Shown: positions 3,068 through 60,710, counted from the first letter of the stretch. The stretch is 64,000 bases of DNA from Acidimicrobiales bacterium (GCA_035540975.1 DATLFN010000136.1:856-64855), one strand, 5' to 3'. Notes: generated from the sequence alone by a model not told the origin. Numbers and translations are program-made.

Positions 3068-3142
3068 GGGGTTGGATGGACGGGAGCTGATGACCGCAGC
3101 ACCCCGTTCTGGCTTCCCGGCGGGCCGGGATCACAGTGGCGC

Positions 3143-7158: not shown

Positions 7159-8048
7159 CTACCCGGGCCCTCGCCGTGGCCGGCGGGCTGGCGGCCGACG
7201 CGCTGTTCGGAGAACCTCCGGCGCGGTCGCACCCGGTACGCGCGTTCGGCTCCATCATGCGCATCGCCGAGCGCCGGCTCTACCGCGACTCCCGGGTGGA
7301 TGGGGTGGCCCACGCCGGCCTCGGGGTGGCGCTGGCCGTCGGCACCGCTGCGGTGGTGCGGTCCACCGCGGTAACCACCTATTTCGCCGTCGCCGGCAGG
7401 GCGCTCGGCGATACCGCCCTCGAGGTGGCGCGGGCGTTGGAGGACGGCGACCTCGATCGGGGCCGGGCCCTTCTGCCCGCCCTCGTCGGACGCGACCCCA
7501 CCGGGCTGGACGAGGCCGAGATCGCCCGCGCCGTCGTCGAGTCGGTGGCCGAGAACACCGTCGACGCGGTAGTGGCGCCCGCCTTCTGGGCCGTCGCCCT
7601 GGGAGCCCCCGGCGCCCTCGGCTACCGGGCCGTCAACACCCTCGACGCCATGGTGGGGCACCGCGGCGACCGCTACGGCAGCTACGGGTGGGCAAGCGCC
7701 CGCCTGGACGACGCCGCCAACCTCGTGCCGGCGCGCCTGACGGCGGCGCTGGTGGCCGGCGCCCGCCCCCGGCGGGCCGGCGAGGTGTGGCACACGGTCC
7801 ACCGGGACGCCCGTGGCCATCCCTCGCCCAACTCCGGCGTGGCCGAAGCGGCGTTCGCCGCCGCCCTCGGGGTCCGCCTCGGCGGGACCAACCGGTACGG
7901 CGACCGCCACGAGGTCCGGCCGTTCCTCGGCCGCGGCCGCCCGGCGGCGCCGGCCGACATCGCCCGATGCGTCCAGCTCTCCCGCCACGTCACCATCCTC
8001 TTTGCTGCCCTGTTGGTCGGCGGCGGCCTCGTGTGGACGTCCCGGTGA
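7155..8048 (+). CDS. cbiB: adenosylcobinamide-phosphate synthase (CbiB/CobD)
   Basis: ORF 7155..8048 reads LAADALFGEPPARSHPVRAFG...ESVAENTVDAVVAPAFW...YRAVNTLDAMVGH...PSPNSGVAEAAFAAALGVRLGG. GTG 7155 overlaps the cobS stop. Confidence 0.9.
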   Translation: MTTRALAVAGGLAADALFGEPPARSHPVRAFGSIMRIAERRLYRDSRVDGVAHAGLGVALAVGTAAVVRSTAVTTYFAVAGRALGDTALEVARALEDGDLDRGRALLPALVGRDPTGLDEAEIARAVVESVAENTVDAVVAPAFWAVALGAPGALGYRAVNTLDAMVGHRGDRYGSYGWASARLDDAANLVPARLTAALVAGARPRRAGEVWHTVHRDARGHPSPNSGVAEAAFAAALGVRLGGTNRYGDRHEVRPFLGRGRPAAPADIARCVQLSRHVTILFAALLVGGGLVWTSR

Positions 8049-45740: not shown

Positions 45741-46256
45741 GAAGTGCTGGGCCGCCCTGCCGGGGTCCACGCGACGCGCCCCATCGGTCCGATCGGTCCG
45801 GTGCGGCCGGCTCGGCAGCGACGCGGCGTACGGGACGATCACGGCCGTCACCCCGGGGAGCGGTTGAAGGAGATGGGCGATGCGCCGGGCGCTGCGCCGG
45901 TGCAGCAGTGGGTGCCACCACCGGTCGAAGTCCAGCTCCGGCACGACCACCGTCACGTGCCGGGCTGATGCCGATTGCTGCCCGACGGCGGCGCGGAGCG
46001 AGTCGCCGAGGGCCTCGGCCGATGCGTCGTGGACGTGGAGGGGCAGCCAGGTGAGGCCGAGCTCCATCCAGTCCCCGGCCAGTCTGCGCGTCTCGGCAGC
46101 GTCGACCGAGACGTGCAGGGCCCGCACGTCGGTGTCGGGAAGCCGGGACACGAACCGCAGCGCCGGAAGGATGCGGCGGTCGACCACCGACACCAGCACG
46201 ATGGCCGTGTGGCGCCGATCCGCCGGGCGCTCAACGACCGGGTCGCGCTTCGCCAT
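45699..46256 (-). CDS. stand-alone paralog of the cytoplasmic C-terminal domain of the adjacent KimA-like transporter
   Basis: ORF 45699..46256: HTAIVLVSVVDRRILPALRFVSRLPDTDVRALHVSVDAAETRRLAGDWMELGL...HVTVVVPELDFDRWWHPLLHRRSARRIAHLL...AVIVPY aligns by eye with the transporter tail HTVVVLVGRVHRGTIEALDYARSLRPNHLTAVHVSS...TVTIVIPEFVTGRLLSPTQLLHNQSAAALKLAL...VVTSVPY. The start overlaps the transporter 3' end by 26 nt. Confidence 0.7.
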   Translation of the reverse strand: MAKRDPVVERPADRRHTAIVLVSVVDRRILPALRFVSRLPDTDVRALHVSVDAAETRRLAGDWMELGLTWLPLHVHDASAEALGDSLRAAVGQQSASARHVTVVVPELDFDRWWHPLLHRRSARRIAHLLQPLPGVTAVIVPYAASLPSRPHRTDRTDGARRVDPGRAAQHFSVRSKGVRGRKVE

Positions 46257-48117
46257 CGTCGGGGCCGGAGCTCTCGATGTGGTACGGCACCGAGGTCACC
46301 ACGGTGCCCTGGCGGAACAGGAGGGCAAGCTTGAGGGCGGCCGCGCTCTGGTTGTGGAGCAGCTGGGTCGGCGACAGCAGCCGCCCGGTGACGAACTCGG
46401 GGATCACGATGGTGACCGTGTCGCCCCGCCAGCGCTCGTCCAGGTCGTCGAGGTAGCGCTCGACCGCCGGGGTGAGCTCCCGGTAGGGGGAGGGGACGAT
46501 CTCGAGCGGGATGTCGAACTTGAAGGCTGCCCAGTCCCGCTCGATGGCAGCCACGTCGCCGTCCTGGGAGGACACGTGGACGGCGGTGAGGTGGTTGGGG
46601 CGCAGTGACCGGGCGTAGTCCAGTGCCTCGATGGTGCCCCGGTGGACCCGGCCGACGAGGACCACGACGGTGTGGTCCATGGACCGGGGGCGTACCGGTC
46701 CGGGCTCGACGGCCAGGATGGCCTCGACGCGGGTGTAGTGGCGCTTGATGGACACGAACAGGGCGATGATGAGCGGCACCACCACTATGGGCAGCCACGC
46801 CCCCACCGCGAACTTCGTCACGGCGACGATCGCGAGCACCACGGCGGTGGCCACCGCGCCCACCGCGTTGACGGCCACCCCCCGCTGCCACCCGCGCTCT
46901 CGCAGGCGGAGGTGGTGGCGCACCATGCCCGACTGGCTCAGGGTGAACGACGTGAACACCCCGACGGCGTAGAGCGGGATGAGCAGCGTGGTGAGGCCGC
47001 CGAAGGCGACCAGCAGGGCGCCGGCCGCCACGGCCAGGAACAGGATCCCGTTGGAGAACACCAGCCGGTCACCCTGGTTGGCGAACTGCCGGGGCAAGTA
47101 GCCGTCCCGGGCCACGATGCTGGCCAGCCGGGGGAAGTCCACGTAGGCGGTGTTGGCGGCCAGGATCAGGATGCCGGCGGTGGCGAACTGGAGCAGGGTG
47201 TGCAGCGGGCCGACTCCGAACACGGCCCGTCCCAGCTGAGAGATGACCGTCTCCTCGTGGGTCGGGTACGGGGCGAGGTGATGGGCGAGCACGGTCACCC
47301 CGAGGAACAGCGTCCCCAGGATGAAGCCCATGACGGTGAGGGTGGTGGCGGCGTTCTTCGACTCCGGCCGCCGGAAGGCGGGAACGCCGTTGGAGATGGC
47401 CTCGACGCCCGACAGGGCGACGGCACCCGACGAGAACCCCCGGAGGACCAGGAACAGCGACAGCTCCCCGCCCGCTCGCCGCACGTCCTCGGCCCGCTCG
47501 GCGTCGAACGGCACGGGGGCGATGTCGCCGAAGAACTCCCGCGCCAAGCCGTAGACGACCATGGCGGTGAGCATCACGATGTAGATGTAGGTGGGTGCCG
47601 CGAAGATCTTCCCCGACTCCTTGACCCCCCGCAGGTTCCCGGCGGTGAGGAGCACCACGAAGAACAGGCAGATGGCGACCCGCTGGTCCTCGAGATGGTG
47701 GAAGGCGTCGAGGGACACGAGGGCGGCGACGCCGGCGGACACCGACACGGCCACGGTCAGGATGTAGTCGACCAGCAGGGAGGCGGCCGCCACCAGCGAC
47801 GGGTACTCGCCCAGGTTCTCCCGGCTGACGATGTAGGCGCCGCCCCCGCTCGGGTAGGCGAAAATGGTCTGTCGGTAGGAGGTCACGACGATGGCGAGGA
47901 GCACCGCCACCGCGATCGCCATCGGAACCAGCTTCTCGAGGCCGAGAGCGAGGCTGGAGGCGCCCACGGCGGTGACGAAAAGGATCTCCTCGGTGGCGTA
48001 GGCGGTGGAGGAGATCGGGTCGGACGAGAAGGTCGCCAGCGCGATCGTCTTGGGCAGCCGCTGGTGGTCGGCGTCGGCCGAGGACAGGGGCCGGCCGACG
48101 AGCAGGCGCTTGGCCAT
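46231..48117 (-). CDS. kimA: APC-superfamily transporter of the KimA (K+/H+ symporter) type with C-terminal cytoplasmic domain
   Basis: ATG 48117 in ORF 46231..48243: MAKRLLVGRPLSSADADHQRLPKTIALATFSSDPISSTAYATEEILFV matches the KimA N-terminal pattern. About 12 TM segments follow, then a soluble domain of about 170 aa. The upstream in-frame codons (ttt, tta, ctt) are atypical for this genome, so I did not use the ATG at 48183. Confidence 0.8.
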   Translation of the reverse strand: MAKRLLVGRPLSSADADHQRLPKTIALATFSSDPISSTAYATEEILFVTAVGASSLALGLEKLVPMAIAVAVLLAIVVTSYRQTIFAYPSGGGAYIVSRENLGEYPSLVAAASLLVDYILTVAVSVSAGVAALVSLDAFHHLEDQRVAICLFFVVLLTAGNLRGVKESGKIFAAPTYIYIVMLTAMVVYGLAREFFGDIAPVPFDAERAEDVRRAGGELSLFLVLRGFSSGAVALSGVEAISNGVPAFRRPESKNAATTLTVMGFILGTLFLGVTVLAHHLAPYPTHEETVISQLGRAVFGVGPLHTLLQFATAGILILAANTAYVDFPRLASIVARDGYLPRQFANQGDRLVFSNGILFLAVAAGALLVAFGGLTTLLIPLYAVGVFTSFTLSQSGMVRHHLRLRERGWQRGVAVNAVGAVATAVVLAIVAVTKFAVGAWLPIVVVPLIIALFVSIKRHYTRVEAILAVEPGPVRPRSMDHTVVVLVGRVHRGTIEALDYARSLRPNHLTAVHVSSQDGDVAAIERDWAAFKFDIPLEIVPSPYRELTPAVERYLDDLDERWRGDTVTIVIPEFVTGRLLSPTQLLHNQSAAALKLALLFRQGTVVTSVPYHIESSGPDDGEARPGR

Positions 48118-48206
48118 GGCGAGCACGGAACCACTGTCACCCGTCCCGATGTCAAGAAGGCGTAAAAACGGCCCGGTGGGCATCAGGAAACCGTAAAGAT
48201 CAATCC

Positions 48207-49349
48207 GTGGCCGCCGGCAGGATTGCTCTCCGCCCCCGCCCACTGTGGGGATGCGTCGCCGGCGTGGTCCTCGTGATCGGCCTCAGCGCCGCACTGGTCC
48301 CCTTCCGCTCGGACATCACCCGCGCCTCCCCCGCCCTGGCGCTGGTCGTGGCCATCGTGGTGGCCGGGCTGGTCGGCGGCCGGCTGGCAGCCCTGGTGGT
48401 CGTGCCCGTCGCCGTCCTCGCGTACAACGTCGTGTTCATCCCGCCCCACTGGACCCTCACCGTGGACGCCCTGGACGACGGCGTGGCGCTGACCGTGTTC
48501 GGGCTGGTGGCCGTCGTCGTCGGCTCGCTGGTGGCCAGGGAGGGCGAGCGCCGACAGTCAGCCGAGGAGCGGGCGGCCGAGCTGCAGATGCTGAACGCCG
48601 AGCTCCAGAAGGTGCACCACGAGCGGGAACGCCTCGGCGAGGAAGCAATGCGGGCGACCGTGCTCGAGAGGATCGACGAACAACGAAGCGCACTGCTGCG
48701 GTCGGTGTCGCACGACCTGCGCACACCCCTCGCCACGGTGCGCGCCGTGGTGTCCGACCTGCTGGGCGGAGCGCCCTACGACGACGCCACCCGCAGCGAG
48801 CTGCTGGGGCTGGTGGCGGACGAGGTCGAGCGCCTGGACCGGCTGGTCGCCAACCTGCTGAACCTGAGCCGGATCGAAGCCGGAGCCCTCCGTCCCGACC
48901 GCCAGGCGGTGGTCATCGACGAGCTGCTGGCCCACACGGTGAAGCGCCTGGACCGGCTCTTCGTCCATCGCCGGGTGCAACTGGAGGTCCCGCCGCTGCC
49001 CATGGTCGACGGCGACTACACCCAGCTGGACCAGGTCGTGAGCAACCTCCTCGAGAACGCCGCCCGCCATGCCCCGAGAGGCTCGACGGTGCGCATCGGA
49101 GGCCGGGAGACCGACGAGCACGTGGAGATCTGGGTCGACGACGAGGGGCCGGGCGTGGCGCCGTTCGAGCGCCGGCGCATCTTCGAGCCCTTCAGCGCCG
49201 GCGACGGGAGCTCGTCGAGCGGCATCGGCCTCGCCATCTGCAAAGCCATCGTGGAGGCCCACGGAGGTTCCATCACCGCCGAGGGCTCGCCGGGGGGAGG
49301 GGCCCGTTTCCGGTTCAGCGTTCCGAAGAGCCATGCCCGGCGAGACTGA
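48207..49349 (+). CDS. sensor histidine kinase, KdpD C-terminal type (DUF4118-like 4-TM module, HisKA, HATPase_c) lacking the N-terminal KdpD/Usp sensor domains
   Basis: ORF 48207..49349 starts with GTG. It has four TM helices including VLAYNVVFIPPHWTLTVD, the H-box LLRSVSHDLRTPLATV, the N-box VSNLLENAARHAP and the G-boxes DDEGPGV and GIGLAICKAIVEAHGG. Confidence 0.85.
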   Translation: MAAGRIALRPRPLWGCVAGVVLVIGLSAALVPFRSDITRASPALALVVAIVVAGLVGGRLAALVVVPVAVLAYNVVFIPPHWTLTVDALDDGVALTVFGLVAVVVGSLVAREGERRQSAEERAAELQMLNAELQKVHHERERLGEEAMRATVLERIDEQRSALLRSVSHDLRTPLATVRAVVSDLLGGAPYDDATRSELLGLVADEVERLDRLVANLLNLSRIEAGALRPDRQAVVIDELLAHTVKRLDRLFVHRRVQLEVPPLPMVDGDYTQLDQVVSNLLENAARHAPRGSTVRIGGRETDEHVEIWVDDEGPGVAPFERRRIFEPFSAGDGSSSSGIGLAICKAIVEAHGGSITAEGSPGGGARFRFSVPKSHARRD

Positions 49350-50058
49350 GCTGATCCTGGTCGTCGACGACGAGCCCGGCATCCTGCGGGCGCTCTCGGC
49401 GGCCTTGCGTGCCCGCGACCACCGAGTGGCGGTCGCCACCACCGGGGCGGAGGCGCTCACCGAGGTCGCCACCCGGCAGCCGGCCGTGATCATCCTCGAC
49501 CTGGGCCTGCCCGACATCGACGGGATCGACGTCTGTCGGCAGTTGCGGAAGTGGACCGACACCCCGATCATCGTGCTCACCGCCGAGGGCGCCGAGTCCC
49601 GCAAGATCGAGGCACTGGACGAGGGAGCCGACGACTACGTCACCAAGCCGTTCTCCACGCCCGAGCTCCTCGCCCGCGTCCGGGTCGCTCTCCGCCGCCA
49701 CCGCCCGGCCGACGGTACCGGTATCGACGTCACCCTGACCGTGGGCGACATCGAGATGGACCTCGCTCGCCACCAGGTTCGCGTGCGCGGCACCGAGGTG
49801 GAGCTCACGCCCAAGGAGTTCGCCTTCCTCGCCGCCCTGGCCCGCCACCCGGGCCGGGTGTTGACCCATCGCATGCTCCTCCACGAGGTGTGGGGGCCCG
49901 AATACGCGAAGGAGACGCAGTACCTGCGGGTCTACGCCAGTCAGGTCCGCAAGAAGCTCGCCGACGACCCTGCCCACCCCGCCCTCGTCACGGAGCCCGG
50001 GGTGGGCTATCGCCTCGTCGATCCGGCCGACCAGCTGGACAGCGGGCCGCAGCAGTAG
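49333..50058 (+). CDS. kdpE: OmpR-family response regulator, KdpE-like
   Basis: ATG 49333 overlaps the kinase gene by 17 nt. LILVVDDEPGILRAL...IILDLGLPDIDG...DDYVTKPF; the winged helix is LTPKEFAFLAALARHPGRVLTHRMLLHEVWGPEYAKETQYLRVYASQVRKKL...TEPGVGYRL. Confidence 0.88.
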   Translation: MPGETELILVVDDEPGILRALSAALRARDHRVAVATTGAEALTEVATRQPAVIILDLGLPDIDGIDVCRQLRKWTDTPIIVLTAEGAESRKIEALDEGADDYVTKPFSTPELLARVRVALRRHRPADGTGIDVTLTVGDIEMDLARHQVRVRGTEVELTPKEFAFLAALARHPGRVLTHRMLLHEVWGPEYAKETQYLRVYASQVRKKLADDPAHPALVTEPGVGYRLVDPADQLDSGPQQ

Positions 50059-50091: not shown

Positions 50092-50120
50092 TTGATTGAG
50101 AACGGTTATTGTTCTATGTT
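50092..50120 (+). promoter_or_regulatory. promoter with embedded Zur-type operator upstream of znuA copy 1
   Basis: TTGATT (50092-50097), a 17-nt spacer, then TATGTT (50115-50120). The ATG lies 8 nt further on. The spacer holds TGAGAACGGTTATTGTTCT, and the 15-mer AACGGTTATTGTTCT (50101-50115) recurs exactly at 59287-59301 on the other strand. Confidence 0.6.
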
Positions 50121-50128
50121 TGAAGGCC

Positions 50129-51133
50129 ATGCGAACAGTTCCCACCCGTCCCCGGCCCCGCCATCGGCCGCGCCGCGCCGTGGCAGCCATCGTGACGGCG
50201 CTGGCGTCGGCCGGTCTGGTGGGCTGCGGGAGCGACGGTGACGCCGCCGCCGCCGGCGGAGCGAACGGCCGGCTCGCCGTGGTGGCGAGCTTCTACCCGG
50301 TCGCCGAGGTCGCCGGTCGGGTGGGGGGCAACCGGGTCCGCGTCTCCAACCTGACGCCGGCGGGGGCCGAGCCCCACGATCTCGAGCTGACCTCGCACCA
50401 GCTCGACCAGCTCGAGGACGCCGATCTCGTCGTCTACCTCGGCAACGGGTTCCAGCCCGGCGTCGCCGAGATCGCCTCCCGCCGGGACTCCGCCACCCTG
50501 GACCTTCTCGACACGATCTCGCTGGAGGAGGGCGCCCACGATGCCGTCGATGCCGACGAGGGGCACGTCGGCGAGGCCAACGAGGGCGAGCACGCCGAGG
50601 GCCGCGGTCTCGATCCCCACTTCTGGCTCGACCCCACGCTGATGGCACAGGCCGCCGACGCGGTCGTCGACGCCCTGGTCGAGGTGGACGCCGACGGTGC
50701 CGGCACGTTCCGGGCGAACGCCGAGGCGTACAAGCGCGAGCTGGCGAGCCTCGACGCCGACATCCAGGCGGGGCTGGCGACATGCGAGCGTCGAGACATC
50801 GTCACCGCCCATGCCGCCTTTCACTACCTCGCCCGCCGCTACGGCCTCGTGCAGCTCCCCATCGCCGGGCTGTCGCCCGAGGCCGAGCCCGATCCCAGGC
50901 GCCTCGCCCAGCTCACCGATCAGATCCGGGAGAAAGGCATCACCACCGTGTTCTTCGAGGAGCTCGTCTCGCCGGCGGTGGCCGAGGCGCTCGCCCGCGA
51001 GGCCGGCGTGGCGACCGCCGCGCTCAGCCCCCTGGAGGGGCTCAGCGTGCCCGATGCCGAGGCCGGGAAGGACTACCCAGCGGTGATGCGCGAGAACCTG
51101 GCGGTGCTGCGCCGGGCCCTCGGCTGTCGCTGA
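50129..51133 (+). CDS. znuA: ZnuA/TroA-family metal ABC substrate-binding lipoprotein
   Basis: ATG 50129 in ORF 50096..51133. Lipobox ASAGLVG-C-GSDG. AVVASFYPVAEV...AGAEPHDLELT...DPHFWLDP...AHAAFHYLARRY. The acidic/His loop is HDAVDADEGHVGEANEGEHAEG. Confidence 0.85.
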   Translation: MRTVPTRPRPRHRPRRAVAAIVTALASAGLVGCGSDGDAAAAGGANGRLAVVASFYPVAEVAGRVGGNRVRVSNLTPAGAEPHDLELTSHQLDQLEDADLVVYLGNGFQPGVAEIASRRDSATLDLLDTISLEEGAHDAVDADEGHVGEANEGEHAEGRGLDPHFWLDPTLMAQAADAVVDALVEVDADGAGTFRANAEAYKRELASLDADIQAGLATCERRDIVTAHAAFHYLARRYGLVQLPIAGLSPEAEPDPRRLAQLTDQIREKGITTVFFEELVSPAVAEALAREAGVATAALSPLEGLSVPDAEAGKDYPAVMRENLAVLRRALGCR

Positions 51134-51272: not shown

Positions 51273-52235
51273 TCAGCCGAGACTGAGGTCGAAGCGTCGG
51301 AGCGTGCCGTCGAGACATCCGACGGCCAGGTGCCACCCCGATGTCGACCATGCCAGGCTGGCCACCCCCGCCGGCAGTTCGGCCTGGGCCAGCGCTCGCT
51401 CCTCCCGGTCCGCCGCCAGCAGCAGCAGGCGCCCGGCGGCGTCTCCGGCGGCGACGACGTTGCCGCCCCGTGAGGCGAGCGCCGCGATCGGCCCGTCGTG
51501 CGCGAGCAGGCGAACGGGCGCGTCCACCGCGACGTTCCCGTCGGCCGTGACCGGCCAGCTGTTCACCTCATCGAGGTCGCAGACGACGAGGTGCTCCCCG
51601 GCCCACGTCAGGCGGCGCACCGGCGTCCCGTAGCCGTCCACGCCGGTCCCCAGGCCCGACACGAGGTCGACGACGTGCACGGACCCGCCCGCCTCGCCCA
51701 CGGCGAGGCGCTGACCGTCGGCCGACAGGGCGAAGGCGCAGGCCATCGACGTCCTCCGCTCGGCGTCCACCGTGCCGTTCTCGTGGTCGACGATCACCAG
51801 GCCGTCGGCCGTACCGAGGGCCACCCGGCTCCCGGGGAGCAGGCAGGCGTCGACGACGTGGCCGACGTCGCATCGGATCGGCGCCAGCTCCCCCGGCCGG
51901 CCGCCGTGGACCCCGGCCGAGGTGACGGCGACCAGCCGCCCGGGGTCGGACCACCACACCCGCCGGCCCCAGCCGCCGAGGCGCTGGGCCGCCTGCCCGA
52001 CCCGGACGTCTCCGCGGTGGTCGATGGTGGCCATCTCCCACGCCGGGCCGCAGGCCACGGCGACGACCACCCCGGGCCCGGGGGGGCGGCGGAGGTCGGG
52101 CCTCCCGTCCACGTGCACGGACCCGTCGGCGCACGTGCAGGCGAGCGACGAGCCGATCCACGCCAACCCGACCACCGCCTCCGGCAGGCAGGCCTCGCCG
52201 ACCGGCCGGAGCGACGCGGCGGCTGGAGTGTTCAC
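51273..52235 (-). CDS. WD40-like beta-propeller protein (module A)
   Basis: GTG 52235 overlaps (GTGA) the stop of the COG0523-like gene. Degenerate WD repeats: AFALSADGQRLAVGEAGGSVHVVDL, IAALASRGGNVVAAGDAAGRLLLL, VASLAWSTSGWHLAVGCLDGTLRRFDL. Confidence 0.75.
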   Translation of the reverse strand: MNTPAAASLRPVGEACLPEAVVGLAWIGSSLACTCADGSVHVDGRPDLRRPPGPGVVVAVACGPAWEMATIDHRGDVRVGQAAQRLGGWGRRVWWSDPGRLVAVTSAGVHGGRPGELAPIRCDVGHVVDACLLPGSRVALGTADGLVIVDHENGTVDAERRTSMACAFALSADGQRLAVGEAGGSVHVVDLVSGLGTGVDGYGTPVRRLTWAGEHLVVCDLDEVNSWPVTADGNVAVDAPVRLLAHDGPIAALASRGGNVVAAGDAAGRLLLLAADREERALAQAELPAGVASLAWSTSGWHLAVGCLDGTLRRFDLSLG

Positions 52236-53224
52236 GGCGCAGCGTGGGATCGCAGGCCGGCCGCCAGGTTCGCCCGGTCGAGCCCCCACCCCACCAGCGC
52301 CACCTGCGAGGCGGTGCCGTGAAGCCTCCTGCCTGGCTGCGTCATCACGATCGACCGCATGCCGAGGCAGTCGACCGCGCTCTCCCGGTCGACCAGGCAC
52401 AGCTCGCCCTGGAGCCGGAGCAGGCGTGAGGCGTGGTCGTCGAGGACACCGTCCAGCCAGGCACGGACGCCCTCCGCCTCGAGCGGCCCGTCGGCGTCGA
52501 CGACGACGGTGGCCGGCGCCTCGTGGGGCGCCGGGCGCGCGTCGTGCACCGAGGCCATGCGGCCGTGCCACGCCCGGCGGTCGAGGAGCGAACCGAGCAT
52601 TGCAGGGCTCCCGACCCACGCCCGGACGGGACCGGTCCGGTTCACACCGCGCACGGCGTGGCGCACGCGGCGCACGACGGCGGGCCGCAGCCGGTCGGCT
52701 CGGGCCACGACCACGGCGTCGGCCATCGCCAGCGTCTCCATCTCCGCCTCGGTCCCCAGCCGGCCGCCGGTGGCGAGCCGGGTGGCCATGGCGGGGCCGT
52801 CGCACGTGGCGATGACGGCGTCGAGGAAGGTCTGGCCGGTCAGGTCGGGGTCGGTGAGCAGCGTCTGGGCGACGCCGACGGCGTCATGGTGCGTGACCAG
52901 GAGGGCGCGGCGCGGCGGGTGACGGCGCCGCAGGGACAAGCGCAGCCCGTCGACGACGTCGACCCGGATCGAGCAGCACTCGCAGCCCGTCGTGCGGTAG
53001 CCGGTCGCCGCCTCCGCCGGCACGGTGAGCACACCCTCGACGGCTGGCCCCTCGACCGCTCCGTGTGGGCCGATCAGGCACACCGCTTCGGCTGCGGTGA
53101 AGGCGGCCAGGTCGAGCGCCAGCTTTGCCGCCTCGGGCCCTCCGGCGACCACCGTGACGGCCACCGGTCCGCCCCGCTCGGCGGCGCCCGCCCCGGCGGG
53201 CGCGGAGGGCAGTTCTTCAGGCAT
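52232..53224 (-). CDS. COG0523 (CobW/YjiA/ZigA) family paralog with degenerate Walker A (module A)
   Basis: ATG 53224. By-eye alignment with my remembered YjiA pattern: PVAVTVVAGGPEAAKLALDLAA replaces the G-F-L-G-A-G-K-T-T P-loop. The GCECCS (CxCC) motif is retained. Family blocks LLVTHHDAVGVAQTLL, LDAVIATCDG and MADAVVVARADRL are present, followed by a CobW_C-like tail. Confidence 0.75.
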   Translation of the reverse strand: MPEELPSAPAGAGAAERGGPVAVTVVAGGPEAAKLALDLAAFTAAEAVCLIGPHGAVEGPAVEGVLTVPAEAATGYRTTGCECCSIRVDVVDGLRLSLRRRHPPRRALLVTHHDAVGVAQTLLTDPDLTGQTFLDAVIATCDGPAMATRLATGGRLGTEAEMETLAMADAVVVARADRLRPAVVRRVRHAVRGVNRTGPVRAWVGSPAMLGSLLDRRAWHGRMASVHDARPAPHEAPATVVVDADGPLEAEGVRAWLDGVLDDHASRLLRLQGELCLVDRESAVDCLGMRSIVMTQPGRRLHGTASQVALVGWGLDRANLAAGLRSHAAP

Positions 53225-53240
53225 GCCGCGTACTATAGAA

Positions 53241-53255
53241 TGAGACTTGTTCTCA
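53241..53255. promoter_or_regulatory. Zur-box-like 7-1-7 palindrome TGAGACT-T-GTTCTCA
   Basis: Read directly. It lies 16 nt upstream of ATG 53224 (minus strand) and next to a TATAGT -10-like hexamer on that strand. It is an AT-rich island in GC-rich DNA, between the zur stop and the COG0523-like start. Confidence 0.6.
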
Positions 53256-53296
53256 CACCAACTGCCCCGCACGATGTGGGTCGAGACGAGGGAGGA

Positions 53297-53722
53297 TCAG
53301 CCGCCGTCTCCGCAGCGACGGCACAGGCCCTCGAAGTCGAGGCGGTGCCCGGTGACCTCGAACCCGGTTTCGGCCACCGCCTGCGAGGCAGCCTCGCGCA
53401 GCACTCGTTCGAGCCGCGTGGCCGCCACCAGATCCGTCACCGCTCCGCACCGCCGGCACACGAGGTGGTGGTGGTGACCGGCCAGGTCCTCGGCCAGCTC
53501 GAACCGGCCGTACTCGTCGGCTCCGGGGAGGCGGACGGCGATCCCGGCGTCACACAGGACGGTGACGTTCCGGTAGGCCGAGCTCTGTGGGACGCCCTCG
53601 GTCCGGCGCAGGATCTCGCCGATGGTCAGGGGGTGCCCCGCCCGCTCCATGGTCTCGACCAGCCGGCGCCGGCTGGCGGTGTAGCGCAGGTCTAGGGCGG
53701 CGAGGCGCTCCTCCGCCACCAC
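53297..53722 (-). CDS. zur: Fur-family metalloregulator, probably Zur
   Basis: GTG 53722 in ORF 53297..53944 (141 aa). LRYTASRRRLVETMERAGHPLTIGEILRRTEGVPQSSAYRNVTVLCDAGIAVRL...GHHHHLVCRRCGAV...GLCRRCG. The assignment to Zur rather than Fur rests on context: the znu genes, COG0523 paralogs and an SmtB-like gene in the same operon, the arrangement known from the M. tuberculosis Rv2358-furB operon. Confidence 0.8.
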   Translation of the reverse strand: MVAEERLAALDLRYTASRRRLVETMERAGHPLTIGEILRRTEGVPQSSAYRNVTVLCDAGIAVRLPGADEYGRFELAEDLAGHHHHLVCRRCGAVTDLVAATRLERVLREAASQAVAETGFEVTGHRLDFEGLCRRCGDGG

Positions 53723-53790
53723 GTGCAGCCGGCCATCCGTCTGATCCGATCCGCGGCCGGGATCGTCGAGCGGTCGCCCGGACGGGAGGC

Positions 53791-54081
53791 TCAGTGCTCG
53801 TCCCAATGACCGTCGTGCGAGGCGTGGCGGTGCCCGTCGTGCAGGTAGTCGGTGTGGCCGCCGTGGTCCAGCGCATCGTGGCCGCACCCCGAGCCGTGCT
53901 CGTGGTCGTGGCCGTCGTGGGTCACGTGGGCGACAGGTTCGCACTCGTCCCAGTGGTCGTCGTGCTCACGATGGGCGTGGCCGTCGTGGAGGTAGTCGGT
54001 ATGGTCGCCGTGGTCCACGGCGACGTGCCCGCATGTCGAGCCGTGCGCGTGATCGTGCTCGGCGTGTGTCGTATGGGTCAT
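53791..54081 (-). CDS. small His/Asp-rich tandem-repeat protein (putative metal-binding)
   Basis: ATG 54081 follows GAGGAGGAA and lies 2 nt after the arsR-like stop. The 96-aa sequence is MTHTTHAEHDHAHGSTCGHVAVDHGDHTDYLHDGHAHREHDDHWDEC / EPVAHVTHDGHDHEHGSGCGHDALDHGGHTDYLHDGHRHASHDGHWDEH. These are two copies of a unit of about 40 aa. Roughly a quarter to a third of residues are His. Confidence 0.7.
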   Translation of the reverse strand: MTHTTHAEHDHAHGSTCGHVAVDHGDHTDYLHDGHAHREHDDHWDECEPVAHVTHDGHDHEHGSGCGHDALDHGGHTDYLHDGHRHASHDGHWDEH

Positions 54082-54083
54082 GG

Positions 54084-54413
54084 TCACTGTTCCTCCTCGG
54101 TGGAGAGCTGGCGGGACGGCCGCAGCTCGTGGGCGTGAACGATGGCATCGTGGACGATGTGGGCGACGTGCTCGTCGCCCAGCGAGTAGGCGATCTCCCG
54201 GCCCCGGCGCTCGGTCCGGACCAGGTGGGTCGACCGGAGCACCCGGAGATGCTGCGACACGAGCGGCTGGGAGAGCCCCAGGGCGTCCACCAGCTCGTGG
54301 ACGCATCGGGCGCCGGTCCCCAGTTCGTGCACGATGGCAAGCCGGTGGACGTTCGCCAGCGCCCGGAGCAACTCGGCGGCTGCTTCGAGGTCCGGCGGCG
54401 GAGCGGTCAACAC
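54084..54413 (-). CDS. ArsR/SmtB-family metal-sensing repressor (alpha5-site type)
   Basis: GTG 54413 follows GGAGG, in ORF 54084..54446. LLRALANVHRLAIVHELGTGARCVHELVDALGLSQPLVSQHLRVLRSTHLV. The C-terminal helix DEHVAHIVHDAIVHAHE carries the Asp/His pattern of alpha5 Zn/Co/Ni sites. Confidence 0.8.
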   Translation of the reverse strand: MLTAPPPDLEAAAELLRALANVHRLAIVHELGTGARCVHELVDALGLSQPLVSQHLRVLRSTHLVRTERRGREIAYSLGDEHVAHIVHDAIVHAHELRPSRQLSTEEEQ

Positions 54414-54459
54414 CTCGCCTCCACTGCCAGCCCCGGGACGCCGCACCCACGTATCATAT

Positions 54460-54469
54460 CATGCGCATG
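54460..54469. promoter_or_regulatory. perfect 10-bp palindrome CATGCGCATG in the divergent intergenic region (candidate ArsR/SmtB operator)
   Basis: Read directly. It is embedded in the AT-richer stretch gtatcatatCATGCGCATGgctgcatgtgt, 47 nt upstream of the arsR-like start. The function is a guess. Confidence 0.3.
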
Positions 54470-54522
54470 GCTGCATGTGTCGCGCAGCCTACGCACCCTG
54501 CCCGCCCCGCTCGCACCGGGGG

Positions 54523-54537
54523 TGAGAATCGTTCTCA
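54523..54537. promoter_or_regulatory. Zur-box-like 7-1-7 palindrome TGAGAAT-C-GTTCTCA
   Basis: Read directly. It lies 20 nt upstream of ATG 54558 of the second COG0523-like gene. Confidence 0.65.
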
Positions 54538-54557
54538 TCGTGTGGTACGGTGAGGGG

Positions 54558-55535
54558 ATGGCGAGCCAGGCGAACCGACGAGCCACGGTCCCCATCACGG
54601 TGGTGACCGGCGCCTGCGAGGCCACCCGGTGGGCCATCGCCGACGCCCTGGCGTCGCCCGATGGCGTCGTCGTCAGCGCCCACGCGCCTCCCGTCTCCGT
54701 CGGTGCCCGGGTGGTCGACGTCGCCGAGGAGACGTTCCGGACCAACCCCGACTGTCCTTGCTGCGCCGTTCGCTTCGACCTTCTCTCGGTGATCCCGGTG
54801 CTGGCGTGTTCGCACCGGCCGTTGACGCGCATCGTGGTTGCCGCAGGAGAGGACAGCGACGTCGCCCTCGTCGCCCAGACGCTGCTGGCCAGCTCGGAGG
54901 TGGAGCGGCTGGCGGAGCTGGACGCCGTCGTGGTCATCGTCGACGGGCGCCGGGCGTCGGCACGCCTGGCGACAGCCCAACCACTCGCCGGCTCCGCCGG
55001 TGCGGCCGACCAGCTGGCCCTCGCCGACCACCTCGTGGTGACGGGATCGGAGGACCTGACCGCCGACGCGCTGGCCGCGGTATCGAGCGAGCTCCGCAGG
55101 TGCAACCCCCTGTCGCTCCTGTGGCTGACCGAGGCGAGCGAGCTCGACACGACCCGGCTGACCGGTGTGCGCTCGTTCGACCTGGCGACGGTGGCCCAGC
55201 GGTCGAGCCGCCCGGTGCCGCCGGCTCCTCCGCTCGACCCGGACCAGCCGGGCACCGTCGTCATCGAGCTCGCCGGCGATCTCGACGGCGACTTGTTGCG
55301 CGGGTGGTTGGGCCGGCTGATCGAGCACCACGGCCACGACCTGCTCAGGTTGCAGGCGGTCTTCCAGGTCCGGCAGTCGGCCAGCCGTCGGGTGTGCTCA
55401 GGCGTGCGTACCACCATCGCGTGGGGCGACGAGGCTGCGTCGGCCCCGGGCGGATCGGGCAGCCGGGCCCTGCTCGTGGGCCGCCGGCTCGACGCCGACC
55501 TGGTGCGAACGTGGCTGGCCGAGGCGCGGGCGTGA
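54558..55535 (+). CDS. COG0523 (CobW/YjiA/ZigA) family paralog with degenerate Walker A (module B)
   Basis: ATG 54558 follows GAGGGG, in ORF 54033..55535. VPITVVTGACEATRWAIADAL sits in place of the P-loop. The CPCCA (CxCC) motif is retained. Blocks RIVVAAGEDSDVALVAQTLL, LDAVVVIVDG and LADHLVVTGSEDL are present, followed by a CobW_C-like tail. Confidence 0.75.
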   Translation: MASQANRRATVPITVVTGACEATRWAIADALASPDGVVVSAHAPPVSVGARVVDVAEETFRTNPDCPCCAVRFDLLSVIPVLACSHRPLTRIVVAAGEDSDVALVAQTLLASSEVERLAELDAVVVIVDGRRASARLATAQPLAGSAGAADQLALADHLVVTGSEDLTADALAAVSSELRRCNPLSLLWLTEASELDTTRLTGVRSFDLATVAQRSSRPVPPAPPLDPDQPGTVVIELAGDLDGDLLRGWLGRLIEHHGHDLLRLQAVFQVRQSASRRVCSGVRTTIAWGDEAASAPGGSGSRALLVGRRLDADLVRTWLAEARA

Positions 55536-56653
55536 AGGCCGCAGGGCAGCGCACCGACGACTGGGCCCGTCCCTGGCTCGAGGCCGAGGCGAGCGACGCG
55601 TTCACCGACGCCATCACCGCGGTCTCGTGGGCCCCTTCGGGTGACGCCCTGGCGGCGGGATCCCTCGGCGGCGAGGTACGGATCGTCGCCGGCGGCGGGC
55701 ACGAGGCGCCGGCGCCGGCGTCGTCGCCCATCGCGCTCCACCCCGGCGGGGCGCTGTGCCTGGCCTGGTCCCACGACTCGGCGTGGGTCGCCAGCGGCGG
55801 CACGGATGCCCGCCTCGTCGTGCGCCACCGCCGGATGGGGACGGGCATGGAGGTGGAGCTGGCCGGATGGGTCCGGTCGGTGGCCTGGAGCCGGGACGGC
55901 TGGCTGGCGGCAGCGGCCGGCCGGGAGGTGTACGGGGCGCACCTCGACGACGGCCGGTGGCACACCCTGGCGCCCCATCCCGGGCCCGTGACCGCCCTGG
56001 CGTGGAGCGACCGCTCATCGCCCGGCCTTCCGTCCCGCCTCGCCGTCGCCGGCGTGGGCGGCCTGCGCTGGTACGAGCCTTCTCGGGACGGCGAGCCCGT
56101 CGCCAGCCGCTGGGAGGCCGCTGCGCTGCTCACCATGGTGGTCGACGCGGCCGCCGGGACCGTGGCCGCCGGCAGCCTCCGCGGCCGGGTGTGGGTGTCC
56201 GGCGTCGGACCGGGCCCCTGCGCTCGCGCCCACGGGCGCCTGGGCCCGGTCAGGCGCCTGGCGTGGAGCCGCGGGGCGAGCCGCCTGGCAGCCGCCGAGG
56301 AGAGCCGCATCGCCGTGTGGGACCACCGCCGCAGCCGAGCTGCGCAGCCGGGCCGGCTCCAGGACGCTATCGCTCACCCCAGCGCCTTCGTCTCGCTGCC
56401 GGCCCACCCCGGCGGGGTCTCCGACGTGGCGTGGGACCCCGGCGGCGAGATCCTGGCGTCGGTGGGAGCCGACGGCCACGTCGCGTTGTGGAAGCCCGAC
56501 GAGACCCGGGACCCCCTTCAACGCATCGACCTGGGCGAGCCCCTCTCCTGCCTCGCCTGGCGGCCCGACGGCACCGGCCTGGCCGCCGGTGGCGAGGCGG
56601 GCTCGCTGCACCGGTTGAGGCTCCGTCACCGACCGCCTACGTCCCGCCCATGA
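55532..56653 (+). CDS. WD40 repeat protein (module B)
   Basis: GTG 55532 overlaps (GTGA) the stop of the COG0523-like gene. Repeats: ITAVSWAPSGDALAAGSLGGEVRIV, CLAWSHDSAWVASGGTDARLVV, VTALAWSD, VRRLAWSRGASRLAAAEESRIAVWD, VSDVAWDPGGEILASVGADGHVALWK, LSCLAWRPDGTGLAAGGEAGSLHRL. Confidence 0.8.
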   Translation: MKAAGQRTDDWARPWLEAEASDAFTDAITAVSWAPSGDALAAGSLGGEVRIVAGGGHEAPAPASSPIALHPGGALCLAWSHDSAWVASGGTDARLVVRHRRMGTGMEVELAGWVRSVAWSRDGWLAAAAGREVYGAHLDDGRWHTLAPHPGPVTALAWSDRSSPGLPSRLAVAGVGGLRWYEPSRDGEPVASRWEAAALLTMVVDAAAGTVAAGSLRGRVWVSGVGPGPCARAHGRLGPVRRLAWSRGASRLAAAEESRIAVWDHRRSRAAQPGRLQDAIAHPSAFVSLPAHPGGVSDVAWDPGGEILASVGADGHVALWKPDETRDPLQRIDLGEPLSCLAWRPDGTGLAAGGEAGSLHRLRLRHRPPTSRP

Positions 56654-56719: not shown

Positions 56720-57559
56720 TCAGGGCGCAGGCGCAGACCGGGCCACGCGATGCAGGCGCAGCCGGCGGGCGCCGGCTCCGGCCCCCGCCGCCGCCAGGTA
56801 GGCGGCGATGGCGGTGAGCACGATGGCGGAGCCGGGGCTGTAGTCGAGGTAGTGCGCGACCGACAGCCCGGCCACGGCACTGGAGGACCCGACGGCGGAC
56901 GCGGTGACGAGCGTGCCCCGGTAGCTGGAGGCCAGCTGGGCGGCGGCGGCCACGGGTACGACCATCATGGCGGCGATGAGCAGCAGGCCGATCGACGACA
57001 TCCCGGCGACGACCACGAGCGAGACCATCAGGGTCAGGGCCAGGACGATCCGGTCGGTGGCGACGCCCGACACCCGGGCCGCTTCCTCGTTGAAGGCCAG
57101 GGCGACGAGGCGGGGATAGAGGACCGCGGTGAGGGCCACCACCGCGGCGGCCAGGACGGCGATGAGCCACACCCGCCCCCAGCTCAGGTTGAGCGGGCTT
57201 CCGAACAGCACGCCGACGAGGCGCGTCTGGCCGGCGCCCGCTCGCGCCGAGAGGAGGTACCCCAGGGCGATCCCCCCGTAGAAGATCAAGGCGATGGCGA
57301 GGTCGCCGGCGAGCCCGGCCCGGGACATGCGGATCAGGAGCAGGCCGGCGACGACGCTGCACGCCAGCGCACCGAGAAGCGGCTCGGCGCCGACCAGGAA
57401 GGCCAGGCCCACCCCGGCGAAGGCGACATGGCCCATCCCGTCGCCGATGAGCGACTGCCCCCGCTGGACGATGAAGCTGCCGACGAGAGGGGCGACGCCC
57501 GCCGTCAGCGTGCACGCCACCAGCGCCCGCTGCATGAACTCGAACTCGAACGGGTTCAC
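56720..57559 (-). CDS. znuB: metal (Zn/Mn) ABC transporter permease ZnuB type
   Basis: GTG 57559 overlaps the znuC stop. VNPFEFEFMQRALVACTLTAGVAPLVGSFIVQRGQSLIGDGMGHVAFAGV...AFNEEAARVSGV. Confidence 0.88.
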   Translation of the reverse strand: MNPFEFEFMQRALVACTLTAGVAPLVGSFIVQRGQSLIGDGMGHVAFAGVGLAFLVGAEPLLGALACSVVAGLLLIRMSRAGLAGDLAIALIFYGGIALGYLLSARAGAGQTRLVGVLFGSPLNLSWGRVWLIAVLAAAVVALTAVLYPRLVALAFNEEAARVSGVATDRIVLALTLMVSLVVVAGMSSIGLLLIAAMMVVPVAAAAQLASSYRGTLVTASAVGSSSAVAGLSVAHYLDYSPGSAIVLTAIAAYLAAAGAGAGARRLRLHRVARSAPAP

Positions 57560-58290
57560 GTGGCGGCGGCGTGGCGGACGGCGGCCGGGGCGACGGGGGC
57601 GGAGACGTCGACGAGCTGACCGTCGTCGACCGCCAACACCCGGTCGGCCAGCCCCGTGAAGGCTCCCGGGTCGTGGCTCACGTAGACGACGGCCATGCCT
57701 TCGACCCGCACCAGGTGCTCGAGCGATTGCCGCAGCACGGCCCTGGCGGCGGCGTCGACTCCGGTCGTCGGCTCGTCCAGCACCAACAGCTGCGGAGCGG
57801 TCACCAGAGCGCGGGCGATCAGGGCCCGTTGCTGCTGGCCGCCCGAGACCTCCGACACCCGCCGGCGCCTGACGTCGGCGAGGCCCATGAGGTCCAGGAC
57901 GTGCTCGAGGCGCTCGCGCGTGGCGCTTCCCCGCCGCACGGCGCGCCTGGTGCCCGCCAGCCCGCTGCGAACCACCTCCTCGACGCTCAGCGGCAGCGCC
58001 GAAGACGCGACCGCCCGCTGGGGGACGTACCCCAGCTGCCACCACTGCCGGAACGATCCCGTGGCCACGCCGAAGAGGCGCACGCTCCCGCGGTCGGGGC
58101 GGAGCAGGCCGAGGCTCAGGCGCAGGATCGTGGTCTTCCCCGCGCCGTTGGGGCCGACGACGGCGACGCACTCGCCCTTGTGGACGGACAGCGACACGTC
58201 CCGCACCACCGCAACGGCCCCGTAGGCGAACGTGACGGCGTCGAGCTCGAGGACCGGGCGCGGCGCAGGCACGGGCCGGCGACCCCTCAA
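57556..58290 (-). CDS. znuC: metal ABC transporter ATP-binding protein ZnuC type
   Basis: Walker A GPNGAGKTTILR, signature VSGGQQQR, Walker B LLVLDEPTTGVD. The chosen start is TTG 58290, overlapping the znuA stop (TTGA). An in-frame GTG at 58272 is an alternative. Confidence 0.85.
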   Translation of the reverse strand: MRGRRPVPAPRPVLELDAVTFAYGAVAVVRDVSLSVHKGECVAVVGPNGAGKTTILRLSLGLLRPDRGSVRLFGVATGSFRQWWQLGYVPQRAVASSALPLSVEEVVRSGLAGTRRAVRRGSATRERLEHVLDLMGLADVRRRRVSEVSGGQQQRALIARALVTAPQLLVLDEPTTGVDAAARAVLRQSLEHLVRVEGMAVVYVSHDPGAFTGLADRVLAVDDGQLVDVSAPVAPAAVRHAAAT

Positions 58291-59532: not shown

Positions 59533-59556
59533 TAGAATGAGAACTGTTATTGTACC
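59533..59556 (+). promoter_or_regulatory. TAGAAT -10-like hexamer plus Zur-type operator variant upstream of the HAF-repeat gene
   Basis: TAGAATGAGAACTGTTATTGTACC. The segment TGAGAACTGTTATTGTACC matches TGAGAACGGTTATTGTTCT (50097-50115) at 16 of 19 positions. It lies about 93 nt upstream of ATG 59649. Confidence 0.45.
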
Positions 59557-59648: not shown

Positions 59649-60710
59649 ATGCGTCGCCATCGTCTGATCCCGGCTCTGCTGGCCGTTCTCCTGGCCGCAC
59701 TGGCCCCCGCCGACGTCTCGGCGCGCCCGGGGTCGGTCCTGGTCACGGACCTGGGCAGTCTGGGCGGCAGCGCCACCTTCGCCCTCGACATCAACGATGC
59801 TCGCCAGGTGACCGGGAACTCCCGAACCACCGGAGGCCAGCTCGTGGCCTTCCTCTGGCAGGGCGGCCACCTCACCGAGCTCGGGTCCCTTCCCGGCGGC
59901 AACGGGTTCAGCCGCGGGTACGCCGTGAGCCCCGACGGCGTCGTCGTCGGCGAGAGCGACAACAACCGGCCCCGCGCCTTCCGTTGGGAGGATGGCGTCA
60001 TGACCGACGTCGGCACGCTCCCCGGCGGGTCCACAGCGGTGGCCCACGACGTGAACGGCTCCGGCGACACCGTGGGCGCCGCCTCGAACGGCTTCGCCAC
60101 CAGGCCGTTCGTCGCCGTCGACGGATCCGAGCCGGTGGACCTCGGGACCCTTGCCGGAACGCCGACATCGTCCGGGCGGGCATGGGCGGTGAACGATCGA
60201 GGCGACGTCGCAGGACTGTCCCGCAACGTTGTCGACAGCACGTCGGAGGCCACGCTCTGGCCGGCAGGAACGCCCGGATCGGCAGTCAGCCTCGGTTCTC
60301 TCGGCGAAGGCCTCTTCAGCCAGGCCTACGCGCTGAACAACCAAAGGGTGGCGGTTGGTGAATCGAGCGTCCTGAGCGGGGACGGGCACGCCGTCGTCTG
60401 GCCGGGCGCGGGAAGCCCGGTCGACCTCGGCACCCTCGGGTTCCGACACAGCCGGGCCAACGACATCAACGAGCGGGGGGAGATCGTGGGGCACGTCGGT
60501 GCCTTCCGCGGGGCACCCACCTCCGGGGGCCGAGCGGTGCTGTGGCGGGCCAACGACGCGGTCGATCTCAACGAGCTGCTCCCGCCCGGGTCACCATGGG
60601 TCCTCCACAGCGCGGAGGGGATCAACGACCGAGGCGACGTCGTCGGCTTCGGTCGTCTGCACGGCCAGCTGAGGTCATTCCTCCTGAACGTGAGGGTCGC
60701 ACGCTCCTGA
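59649..60710 (+). CDS. secreted HAF-family extracellular repeat protein
   Basis: ATG 59649 follows GAGGAAGG. Signal peptide MRRHRLIPALLAVLLAALAPADVSA. Repeated units are of the type A(L/V)DIND(A/R)GQVTG...AFLWQGG.(L/M)T(E/D)LG(S/T)LPGG, as expected for HAF repeats. Confidence 0.8.
   Translation: MRRHRLIPALLAVLLAALAPADVSARPGSVLVTDLGSLGGSATFALDINDARQVTGNSRTTGGQLVAFLWQGGHLTELGSLPGGNGFSRGYAVSPDGVVVGESDNNRPRAFRWEDGVMTDVGTLPGGSTAVAHDVNGSGDTVGAASNGFATRPFVAVDGSEPVDLGTLAGTPTSSGRAWAVNDRGDVAGLSRNVVDSTSEATLWPAGTPGSAVSLGSLGEGLFSQAYALNNQRVAVGESSVLSGDGHAVVWPGAGSPVDLGTLGFRHSRANDINERGEIVGHVGAFRGAPTSGGRAVLWRANDAVDLNELLPPGSPWVLHSAEGINDRGDVVGFGRLHGQLRSFLLNVRVARS

Follow-up and report, generated by a model that had tools for sequence, protein, structure and literature searches.

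P-loop-less COG0523-like proteins paired with WD40 proteins behind predicted Zur boxes in a zinc-homeostasis island of an Acidimicrobiales bacterium

Introduction

Two gene pairs, modules A and B, each consisting of a COG0523-like gene that lacks the Walker A P-loop and of a WD40 gene behind it, were analyzed in a 64,000-nucleotide (nt) stretch of DNA from an Acidimicrobiales bacterium (GCA_035540975.1 DATLFN010000136.1:856-64855; the whole stretch is referred to as the window). Pairs of this general kind are known. Prokaryotic COG0523 subfamily 5 clusters with WD40 genes and with znuABC, with predicted Zur boxes, and predicted Zur-regulated znuCBA-COG0523-5-WD40 operons occur in Bradyrhizobium, Nitrobacter and Rhodopseudomonas (Haas et al. 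2009, BMC Genomics 10:470, PMC2770081). The same study described Rv0106 as a Zur-repressed COG0523-like protein without Walker A. The zinc-bound form of this protein, Mrf (Mpy recruitment factor; Rv0106/MSMEG_6069), is degraded by Clp, and its zinc-free form binds the 30S ribosomal subunit and recruits Mpy, a hibernation factor, without GTP (PMC6094098, PMC7431043). Mycobacterial Mrf is, for a Zur-regulated COG0523-like protein without G motifs, a characterized precedent.

An earlier note, made from the sequence of the window alone, was not aware of any described pairing of COG0523 with WD40 proteins in bacteria. That part of it did not stand: the pairing had been reported by Haas et al. 2009 (PMC2770081), and canonical examples were found on plasmids. 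In the literature searched, the WD40 link was mentioned only by Haas et al. 2009, and no paper was found on P-loop-less members paired with WD40 proteins. A clade that has lost Walker A, switch I, Walker B and NKxD, with CxCC mostly kept, appears to be undescribed in that literature, as do its conserved WD40 partner and the placement of the pair behind Zur-type boxes, beside znuA or beside genes of zinc-independent ribosomal-protein paralogues. The locus is an undescribed variant of the known zinc-chaperone/WD40 gene pair, and not a new kind of system.

Results

COG0523-Like Proteins A and B

Both proteins scored above the Pfam gathering cut-offs of cobW (20.7 bits) and CobW_C (22 bits), A with 28.9 and 22.4 bits and B with 30.1 and 28.2 bits, respectively. 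The cobW match of A and B covered only profile positions 54-176, with its start at 54-58, past the P-loop, and YjiA was barely reached at the sequence level (E = 0.3-0.8). In alignment with a canonical relative, AGGPEAAK in A and TGACEATR in B stood opposite GFLGAGKT. Neither GK[ST] nor [NT]KxD occurred anywhere in A or B, the longest possible N-terminal extensions included, and no intact P-loop was found elsewhere in the N-terminus of either protein. In an alignment of 163 family members read against a canonical reference, the loss included the ENEFG switch I, the ExxG Walker B (position reading LLVT-- in A and VVAAGE in B) and the NKxD/TKxD G4 motif (VVARAD in A and VVTGSE in B), with CxCC kept as GCECC in A and as DCPCC in B. 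The loss of Walker A and the retention of CxCC, both claimed in the earlier note, were borne out, and the alignment added Walker B, switch I and NKxD to the motifs lost. Residues C66, C68 and C69 were invariant in 19 sequences and, together with R72, D74, D122, R136, D157 and W250, across families only 25-30% identical.

The AlphaFold model of B (22 sequences) had a predicted local distance difference test score (pLDDT) of 88.5 and a predicted template modeling score (pTM) of 0.89. Its best matches in the PDB were three entries of YjiA, including 4ixm and 1nij, over both domains (TM-score 0.73, E = 3e-21). Because the G motifs are lost while the YjiA fold is predicted, A and B are classed, on alignment and model, as predicted COG0523-fold pseudo-GTPases. 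With the G motifs gone, normal use of GTP by A or B would be unlikely, a view of the earlier note that is well founded and that keeps its conditional form. Public labels of proteins of the A and B type were 'G3E family GTPase' or 'GTP-binding protein'; this labeling is probably wrong for them.

WD40 Partners and Gene Pairing

A WD40 gene was found directly downstream of the COG0523-like gene in all 13 P-loop-less pairs examined (the two window modules, L007 to L013, L017, L020, L021 and the P0164 contig), and stop and start codons overlapped as GTGA in eight of them, both window modules included. The pairs were at very different distances from the window copies: in the A family, identity of the COG0523-like protein to window A was 86% in L021, 76% in L017, 63% in L010 and 55% in L020; in the B family, identity to window B was 66% in L007, 62% in L009 and 58% in L008; and in the distant pairs, identity to the window copy was 37% in L013 and 27-32% in L011, L012 and the P0164 contig. 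The coupled WD40 partner was conserved over the entire range of 27-100% identity.

WD40(B) matched the WD40 family of Pfam (Table 1) and WD40(A) gave weak beta-propeller matches only; the WD40 proteins of the P-loop-less pairs were mutually homologous. The model of WD40(B), of moderate confidence (pLDDT 66.9, two-sequence alignment) and used for the fold class only, matched ordinary seven-blade WD40 domains.

Canonical pairs were found on two alphaproteobacterial plasmids. That of Lichenicola carried a canonical COG0523 gene (GYLGAGKTT, CICC, ETTG and NKAD) followed by a WD40 gene, and that of Skermanella an operon aztA-permease-binding protein-COG0523-WD40 with an ATGA overlap. The WD40 proteins of the canonical pairs L018 and L022 matched the B-family WD40 protein of L007 along their full length with 29% identity (322-328 amino acids; E = 1e-14 and 3e-12 in a small database), and the match to WD40(B) of the window itself was weaker (E = 2e-6). 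The window modules probably derive from the known COG0523-WD40 pair, the WD40 proteins of which are homologous to the WD40(B) family.

In the branch of L011 and L012, a flavin/pyridine-nucleotide oxidoreductase-like gene (Pyr_redox_2, weak match) was located beside the WD40 gene (3136-4383, plus strand, in L011; 5295-6455, minus strand, in L012), and may be a third conserved neighbor there.

Zur-Type Boxes and Promoters

The two 7-1-7 palindromes read in the earlier note were confirmed at the noted distances ahead of the ATG codons of A and B (Table 1). The core AAYNRTTCTCA occurred four times in the window, against 0.02 occurrences expected from shuffles; the two additional copies belonged to asymmetric boxes (CAATAACnGTTCTCA) near the two znuA-like genes. 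The A box was followed by the -10-like hexamer TATAGT (coding strand) and the B box by TACGGT, with ATG 7 nt on in both.

The same box was found ahead of the A orthologues in L021 and L017, and orthologous B boxes in L007, L008 and L009. The orthologous boxes read TGAGAGC-C-ATTCTCA, TGAGACT-C-GTTCTCA, TGAGAAT-G-GTTCTCA and TGAGAAC-A-GTTCTTA, with the variant TGGGAAT-G-GTTCCCA. A TAnnnT hexamer regularly came after the box, and ATG 6-7 nt after the hexamer. This layout of box, TAnnnT and ATG points to a promoter that contains the repressor site and gives leaderless transcripts. Thirteen of 15 positions fitted the Zur consensus quoted in PMC4298942, which is a mycobacterial one, with a symmetric A/T-to-G/C change. 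The reading of the palindromes as Zur operators, still a prediction, gained from their conservation upstream of orthologues in other organisms, and both modules would, on these predicted boxes, be under the control of Zur.

The public gene call of COG0523-like B from the Joint Genome Institute (JGI), in L001 to L006, placed the start 27 codons upstream (54477-54557), for a protein of 352 amino acids. That start is probably wrong, because it would put the Zur box and the -10-like hexamer inside the gene; the shorter gene is favored because the layout of box, TAnnnT, 6-7 nt and ATG is conserved in seven loci.

Gene context pointed to zinc as well. A ZnuA gene was located behind the pair in L007 and L009, and genes of zinc-independent L31, L33 and L28 paralogues flanked three distant clade members (P0164, P0165 and P0166) and their WD40 genes.

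Distribution of the P-Loop-Less Clade

Word-indexed homologue searches returned 7, 8 and 13 proteins, and the clade became visible only when 1.84 billion cluster representatives were searched exhaustively with HMMER, which gave 6187 matches. The A family and the B family each formed one cluster at 50% identity (460 and 440 bits), and the next match scored 240 bits. Loss of all G motifs with CxCC kept was found in 15 of 15 members of the A and B families, and in 58 of the 163 aligned family sequences, which were the top HMMER matches. Sixty-two of the 163 were fully canonical, and proteins with 'GW[YH]G[AS]GK[ST]' were of intermediate grade.

In a rough neighbor-joining tree, the smallest clade containing both A and B comprised 55 sequences, each a cluster at 50% identity, of which none had a P-loop and 47 had CxCC. 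Because the whole 55-member clade lacked the P-loop, its loss is, by this tree, old, and diversification of the clade came later. The sole named clade member came from a metagenome-assembled genome (MAG) of Acidimicrobiia; a scan of species genomes gave one locus, in an Acidimicrobiia MAG, and a scan of metagenomes gave at least three loci, one of them canonical. The nearest canonical matches were 45-54% identical to the WD40-linked protein of Lichenicola.

A ribosomal-paralogue island in L012 contained three COG0523-type genes (coordinates 375-1322 and 6478-7695, both on the minus strand). One was P-loop-less and had a WD40 partner, another encoded a canonical CobW of 405 amino acids (177 bits), and the third encoded 315 amino acids with both the P-loop (GHSGSQAI) and CxCC lost, behind an Fe-type alcohol dehydrogenase gene in an L28-L33 operon.

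Relation Between Modules A and B

Proteins A and B were 29% identical to each other, and WD40(A) and WD40(B) 28%. A and B each had separate orthologues, mostly in other gene contexts: the A orthologues at 86 and 76% identity (L021 and L017) had a gene of a methyltransferase or of DUF808, and not zur, as neighbor, and in L007 the place of module A beyond zur, seen from the B orthologue, was taken by a gene of an unidentified family. A recent inverted duplication was rejected on the low identities, the separate orthologues and the position of the A orthologues away from zur. The suggestion of the earlier note, that an inverted duplication around the two zinc sensors argued for selection, did not survive this comparison. 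Modules A and B are, on sequence comparison, old paralogues; because orthologous modules sit in other contexts, the conserved unit is the Zur box followed by the COG0523-like gene and the WD40 gene. The symmetric layout seems particular to the source organism, L001 to L006 being the same sequence.

Central Operon

The gene order was as the earlier note had read it, with WD40(A), COG0523-like A, zur, the His-rich open reading frame (ORF) and arsR/smtB on one side of the divergent promoters and COG0523-like B and WD40(B) on the other (Table 1). The zur product, a FUR-domain protein, had CRRC twice in its sequence. The ArsR/SmtB-family protein read DEH-x10-HAHE near its C-terminus, a DxHx10HxxE motif that matches the alpha5-type zinc site by which SmtB and CzrA sense zinc. 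The protein encoded between the two regulators had 27 His, 16 Asp and 4 Cys residues in two 48-amino-acid repeats of the pattern HxHGxxCGHxAxDHGxHTDYLHDGHxHxxHDxHWDE. It had no match in Pfam or NCBIfam; L007 had a conserved counterpart (78%), and L008 a partly conserved one. The protein may serve as a zinc buffer that is made once high zinc releases SmtB. The palindrome CATGCGCATG upstream of arsR/smtB had a counterpart in a GCATGCGAAT-like sequence conserved in L007 (about 2331-2345) and in L008 (about 472-482), and could serve the SmtB-type regulator as operator.

Surrounding Genes

The window had a G+C content of about 74%, and its zinc-related genes formed a compact zinc-homeostasis island between 50.1 and 59.3 kb (Table 1).

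Table 1. Position, strand and supporting evidence of genes and predicted sites of the zinc-homeostasis island, numbered from the first nucleotide of the window.
Feature	Position	Strand	Evidence or remark
Asymmetric Zur-like box CAATAAC-C-GTTCTCA (minus-strand reading)	50097-50111	-	Just upstream of first znuA-like gene
znuA-like (ZnuA-family lipoprotein, His/acidic loop)	50129-51133	+	Pfam ZnuA 265 bits; start uncertain, ATG 50129 or GTG 50180
WD40(A), 320-amino-acid beta-propeller protein	51273-52235	-	Gene call; GTG start; orthologues behind A orthologues in L010, L017, L020 and L021
COG0523-like A, 330 amino acids	52232-53224	-	cobW and CobW_C; GCECC kept; Walker A, switch I, Walker B and NKxD gone
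Zur-type 7-1-7 box TGAGACT-T-GTTCTCA	53241-53255		16 nt before A start codon
zur, Fur-family repressor, two CxxC pairs	53297-53722	-	PF01475 54.4 bits
His-rich ORF, 96 amino acids	53791-54081	-	Composition; tandem 48-amino-acid repeat
arsR/smtB, ArsR/SmtB-family metalloregulator	54084-54413	-	NF033788 88.9 bits; HTH_5 45.5 bits
10-bp palindrome CATGCGCATG, candidate ArsR/SmtB operator	54460-54469		Upstream of arsR/smtB
Zur-type 7-1-7 box TGAGAAT-C-GTTCTCA	54523-54537		20 nt before B start codon
COG0523-like B, 325 amino acids	54558-55535	+	cobW and CobW_C; DCPCC kept; all G motifs gone; predicted YjiA-like fold
WD40(B), 373-amino-acid WD40 propeller	55532-56653	+	WD40 family 86.5 bits; GTG start
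znuB-type ABC-3 permease	56720-57559	-	PF00950 160 bits
znuC-type ATP-binding cassette (ABC) ATPase	57556-58272	-	ABC_tran 104 bits
Second ZnuA-family binding protein, His-rich loop	58287-59258	-	ZnuA 170 bits
Asymmetric Zur-like box CAATAAC-A-GTTCTCA	59538-59552	-	Between second znuA and DUF3466-like gene (59649-60710)

The DUF3466-like gene may also belong to the Zur regulon, because the second asymmetric box lies between it and the second znuA. Directly upstream of the island, genes of a DUF4118/HisKA histidine kinase and of an OmpR-type response regulator (48207-50058, plus strand) adjoined an amino-acid-permease-like gene (46231-48243); this group had a KdpD/E-like look and no evident link to zinc.

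Discussion

Proposed Mechanism

The reading favored here, with a probability of about one half, is that each module provides a Zur-derepressed, nucleotide-independent, zinc-binding pseudo-GTPase in stoichiometric complex with a WD40 adaptor, descended from a subfamily 5-type pair. The region would be a zinc-limitation island in which 7-1-7 boxes located between -35 and -10 let Zur repress two leaderless operons. When zinc is scarce, each operon would yield a COG0523-fold protein together with a WD40 propeller in equimolar amount, the two being translationally coupled. The pair would descend from the Zur-regulated COG0523 (subfamily 5-like)-WD40 pair of Proteobacteria and Cyanobacteria, the G domain having turned into a pseudo-GTPase in an actinobacterial clade, with the CxCC site and the two-domain fold kept. 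Zn(II) would then be bound at CxCC without nucleotide control, and the protein and its WD40 partner would form a stable complex, in which the WD40 protein would supply a client-docking or targeting surface. Such a complex may allocate imported zinc, in agreement with the link to ZnuABC, or report zinc occupancy to a client, and the two old paralogous modules would presumably serve different clients. Control by Zur, zinc binding, the lack of GTP binding, the physical complex and the identity of the client are the parts of this proposal that we infer. It is a more tentative possibility that occupancy of CxCC, and not a GTP cycle, controls how the WD40-bound complex engages its client, for which a zinc enzyme, the ZnuBC importer and the ribosome would be candidates.

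Some of the results weigh against this proposal. CxCC was itself lost in eight of the 55 clade members, so metal binding would not be universal in the clade. No invariant His or Cys was found among the WD40 proteins of the pairs, which as a consequence gave no hint of a cargo handed over. The placement relative to subfamily 5 rests on similarity ranks and on the rough neighbor-joining tree, and a canonical COG0523 gene, sought in the 64-kb window, was not found there.

The same genes could alternatively encode a ribosome factor, in which the zinc-free COG0523-like protein would sit on the small subunit with the WD40 protein as scaffold and promote, without GTP, ribosome hibernation or the replacement of zinc-containing ribosomal proteins by zinc-free paralogues, in the manner of Mrf with Mpy. 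Mrf is Zur-regulated, lacks G motifs, uses neither ATP nor GTP and senses zinc (PMC6094098, PMC7431043), and P0164, P0165 and P0166 are encoded with their WD40 genes inside clusters of L31, L33 and L28 paralogues. The window modules and their closer relatives, however, adjoin znuA, zur and smtB and not ribosomal paralogues, and Mrf has CxSC (Haas et al. 2009, PMC2770081) and no WD40 partner mentioned for it (PMC6094098, PMC7431043), and a ribosomal role is regarded as unlikely. The presence in L012 of the canonical CobW a few genes from a P-loop-less/WD40 pair would agree with another role, that of an inactive regulatory subunit, which would pair with a canonical COG0523 GTPase encoded elsewhere and modulate its metal delivery. 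Such an arrangement would have parallels in other pairs of an enzyme with a pseudoenzyme and in the dimeric G3E GTPases, among which HypB and UreG act as dimers. It is rather improbable, however, with no canonical COG0523 within the window and with the WD40 gene, and not a second G protein, as the constant neighbor.

Two further explanations do without a partner or without a function. A zinc buffer or store, in which zinc would be sequestered at CxCC and the WD40 gene would be functionally unrelated, is in line with the conservation of CxCC, with the loss of every motif for a nucleotide-driven cycle and with the His-rich protein encoded in the neighboring operon; but one CxCC per 330-amino-acid protein would make a poor store, the predicted Zur boxes imply expression under zinc limitation, opposite to what a store needs, and the coupled WD40 partner was conserved at all distances, which together leave this explanation with a small chance. 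That A and B are decaying, non-functional COG0523 relics agrees with the loss of all catalytic motifs and with the weak Pfam scores and is, nevertheless, hardly credible: the conservation pattern already argues against gene decay, with intact ORFs in many lineages and residues invariant across families 25-30% identical, and the fold was predicted with confidence and operator and translational coupling were conserved.

Implications

What GTP hydrolysis does in COG0523 zinc chaperones is still unsettled, a question to which the clade is relevant. Its proteins are naturally occurring, diversified and conserved, and in them the metal site and the WD40 partner are kept and the nucleotide-binding motifs are gone. 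Because these motifs are gone, the role of the pairs under zinc limitation could not depend on GTP, which would make them a ready-made separation-of-function system. Comparison with Mrf suggests that loss of the G motifs took place more than once in Actinobacteria. If the pairs act as zinc switches, they would represent a pseudo-GTPase class of metallochaperone or sensor, and would reveal which COG0523 functions do without GTP. To our knowledge, no study has dealt with the function of the WD40 partner that was noted in 2009.

Comparison With Known Systems

The COG0523 GTPases YjiA, ZigA and ZNG1 share with A and B the two-domain fold (predicted for B, by similarity to YjiA), CxCC and a link to Zur and zinc limitation, and differ in that they need GTP binding and hydrolysis, whereas A and B lack every nucleotide-binding motif.

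AztD, likewise a propeller, has its gene in the neighborhood of those for zinc ABC transporters and CobW, but it is periplasmic and binds zinc itself (PMC6689063), whereas WD40(A) and WD40(B) have neither a signal peptide nor an invariant His or Cys. No AztD entry was present among the top 50 structural matches of the WD40(B) model, and an AztD-like periplasmic propeller was rejected for the WD40 partners on these three grounds.

The central operon resembles the smtB-zur operon of mycobacteria (Rv2358-furB), in which an ArsR/SmtB-type zinc sensor is co-transcribed with zur, in its pairing of the two regulators, and differs from it by the 96-amino-acid His-rich ORF between them. An unverified sequence of Rv0106 gave weak matches to canonical proteins only and had no special affinity to A or B, which would be a lead at most.

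With Mrf, the window proteins have in common the regulation by Zur, predicted here, the COG0523-like sequence without G motifs, which in Mrf works without GTP, and the actinobacterial origin; the ribosomal-paralogue context recurred in distant clade members. They differ from it by CxCC in place of CxSC, by the WD40 partner, of which none is mentioned for Mrf (PMC6094098, PMC7431043), and by their location beside znuA, zur, smtB and znuCBA.

The subfamily 5-WD40 pair of Haas et al. has intact GxxGxGKT, ENEFG, ExxG and NKxD in its canonical form, all four of which are lost in A and B. The window lineage differs further in being actinobacterial (Acidimicrobiia), with an actinobacterial-type Zur box, and in having two divergent paralogous modules in one locus. 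In both, a COG0523-fold gene is followed, often with an overlap, by the gene of a WD40 protein, the WD40 proteins are homologous, a predicted Zur box is located upstream, and the pair is linked to znuABC.

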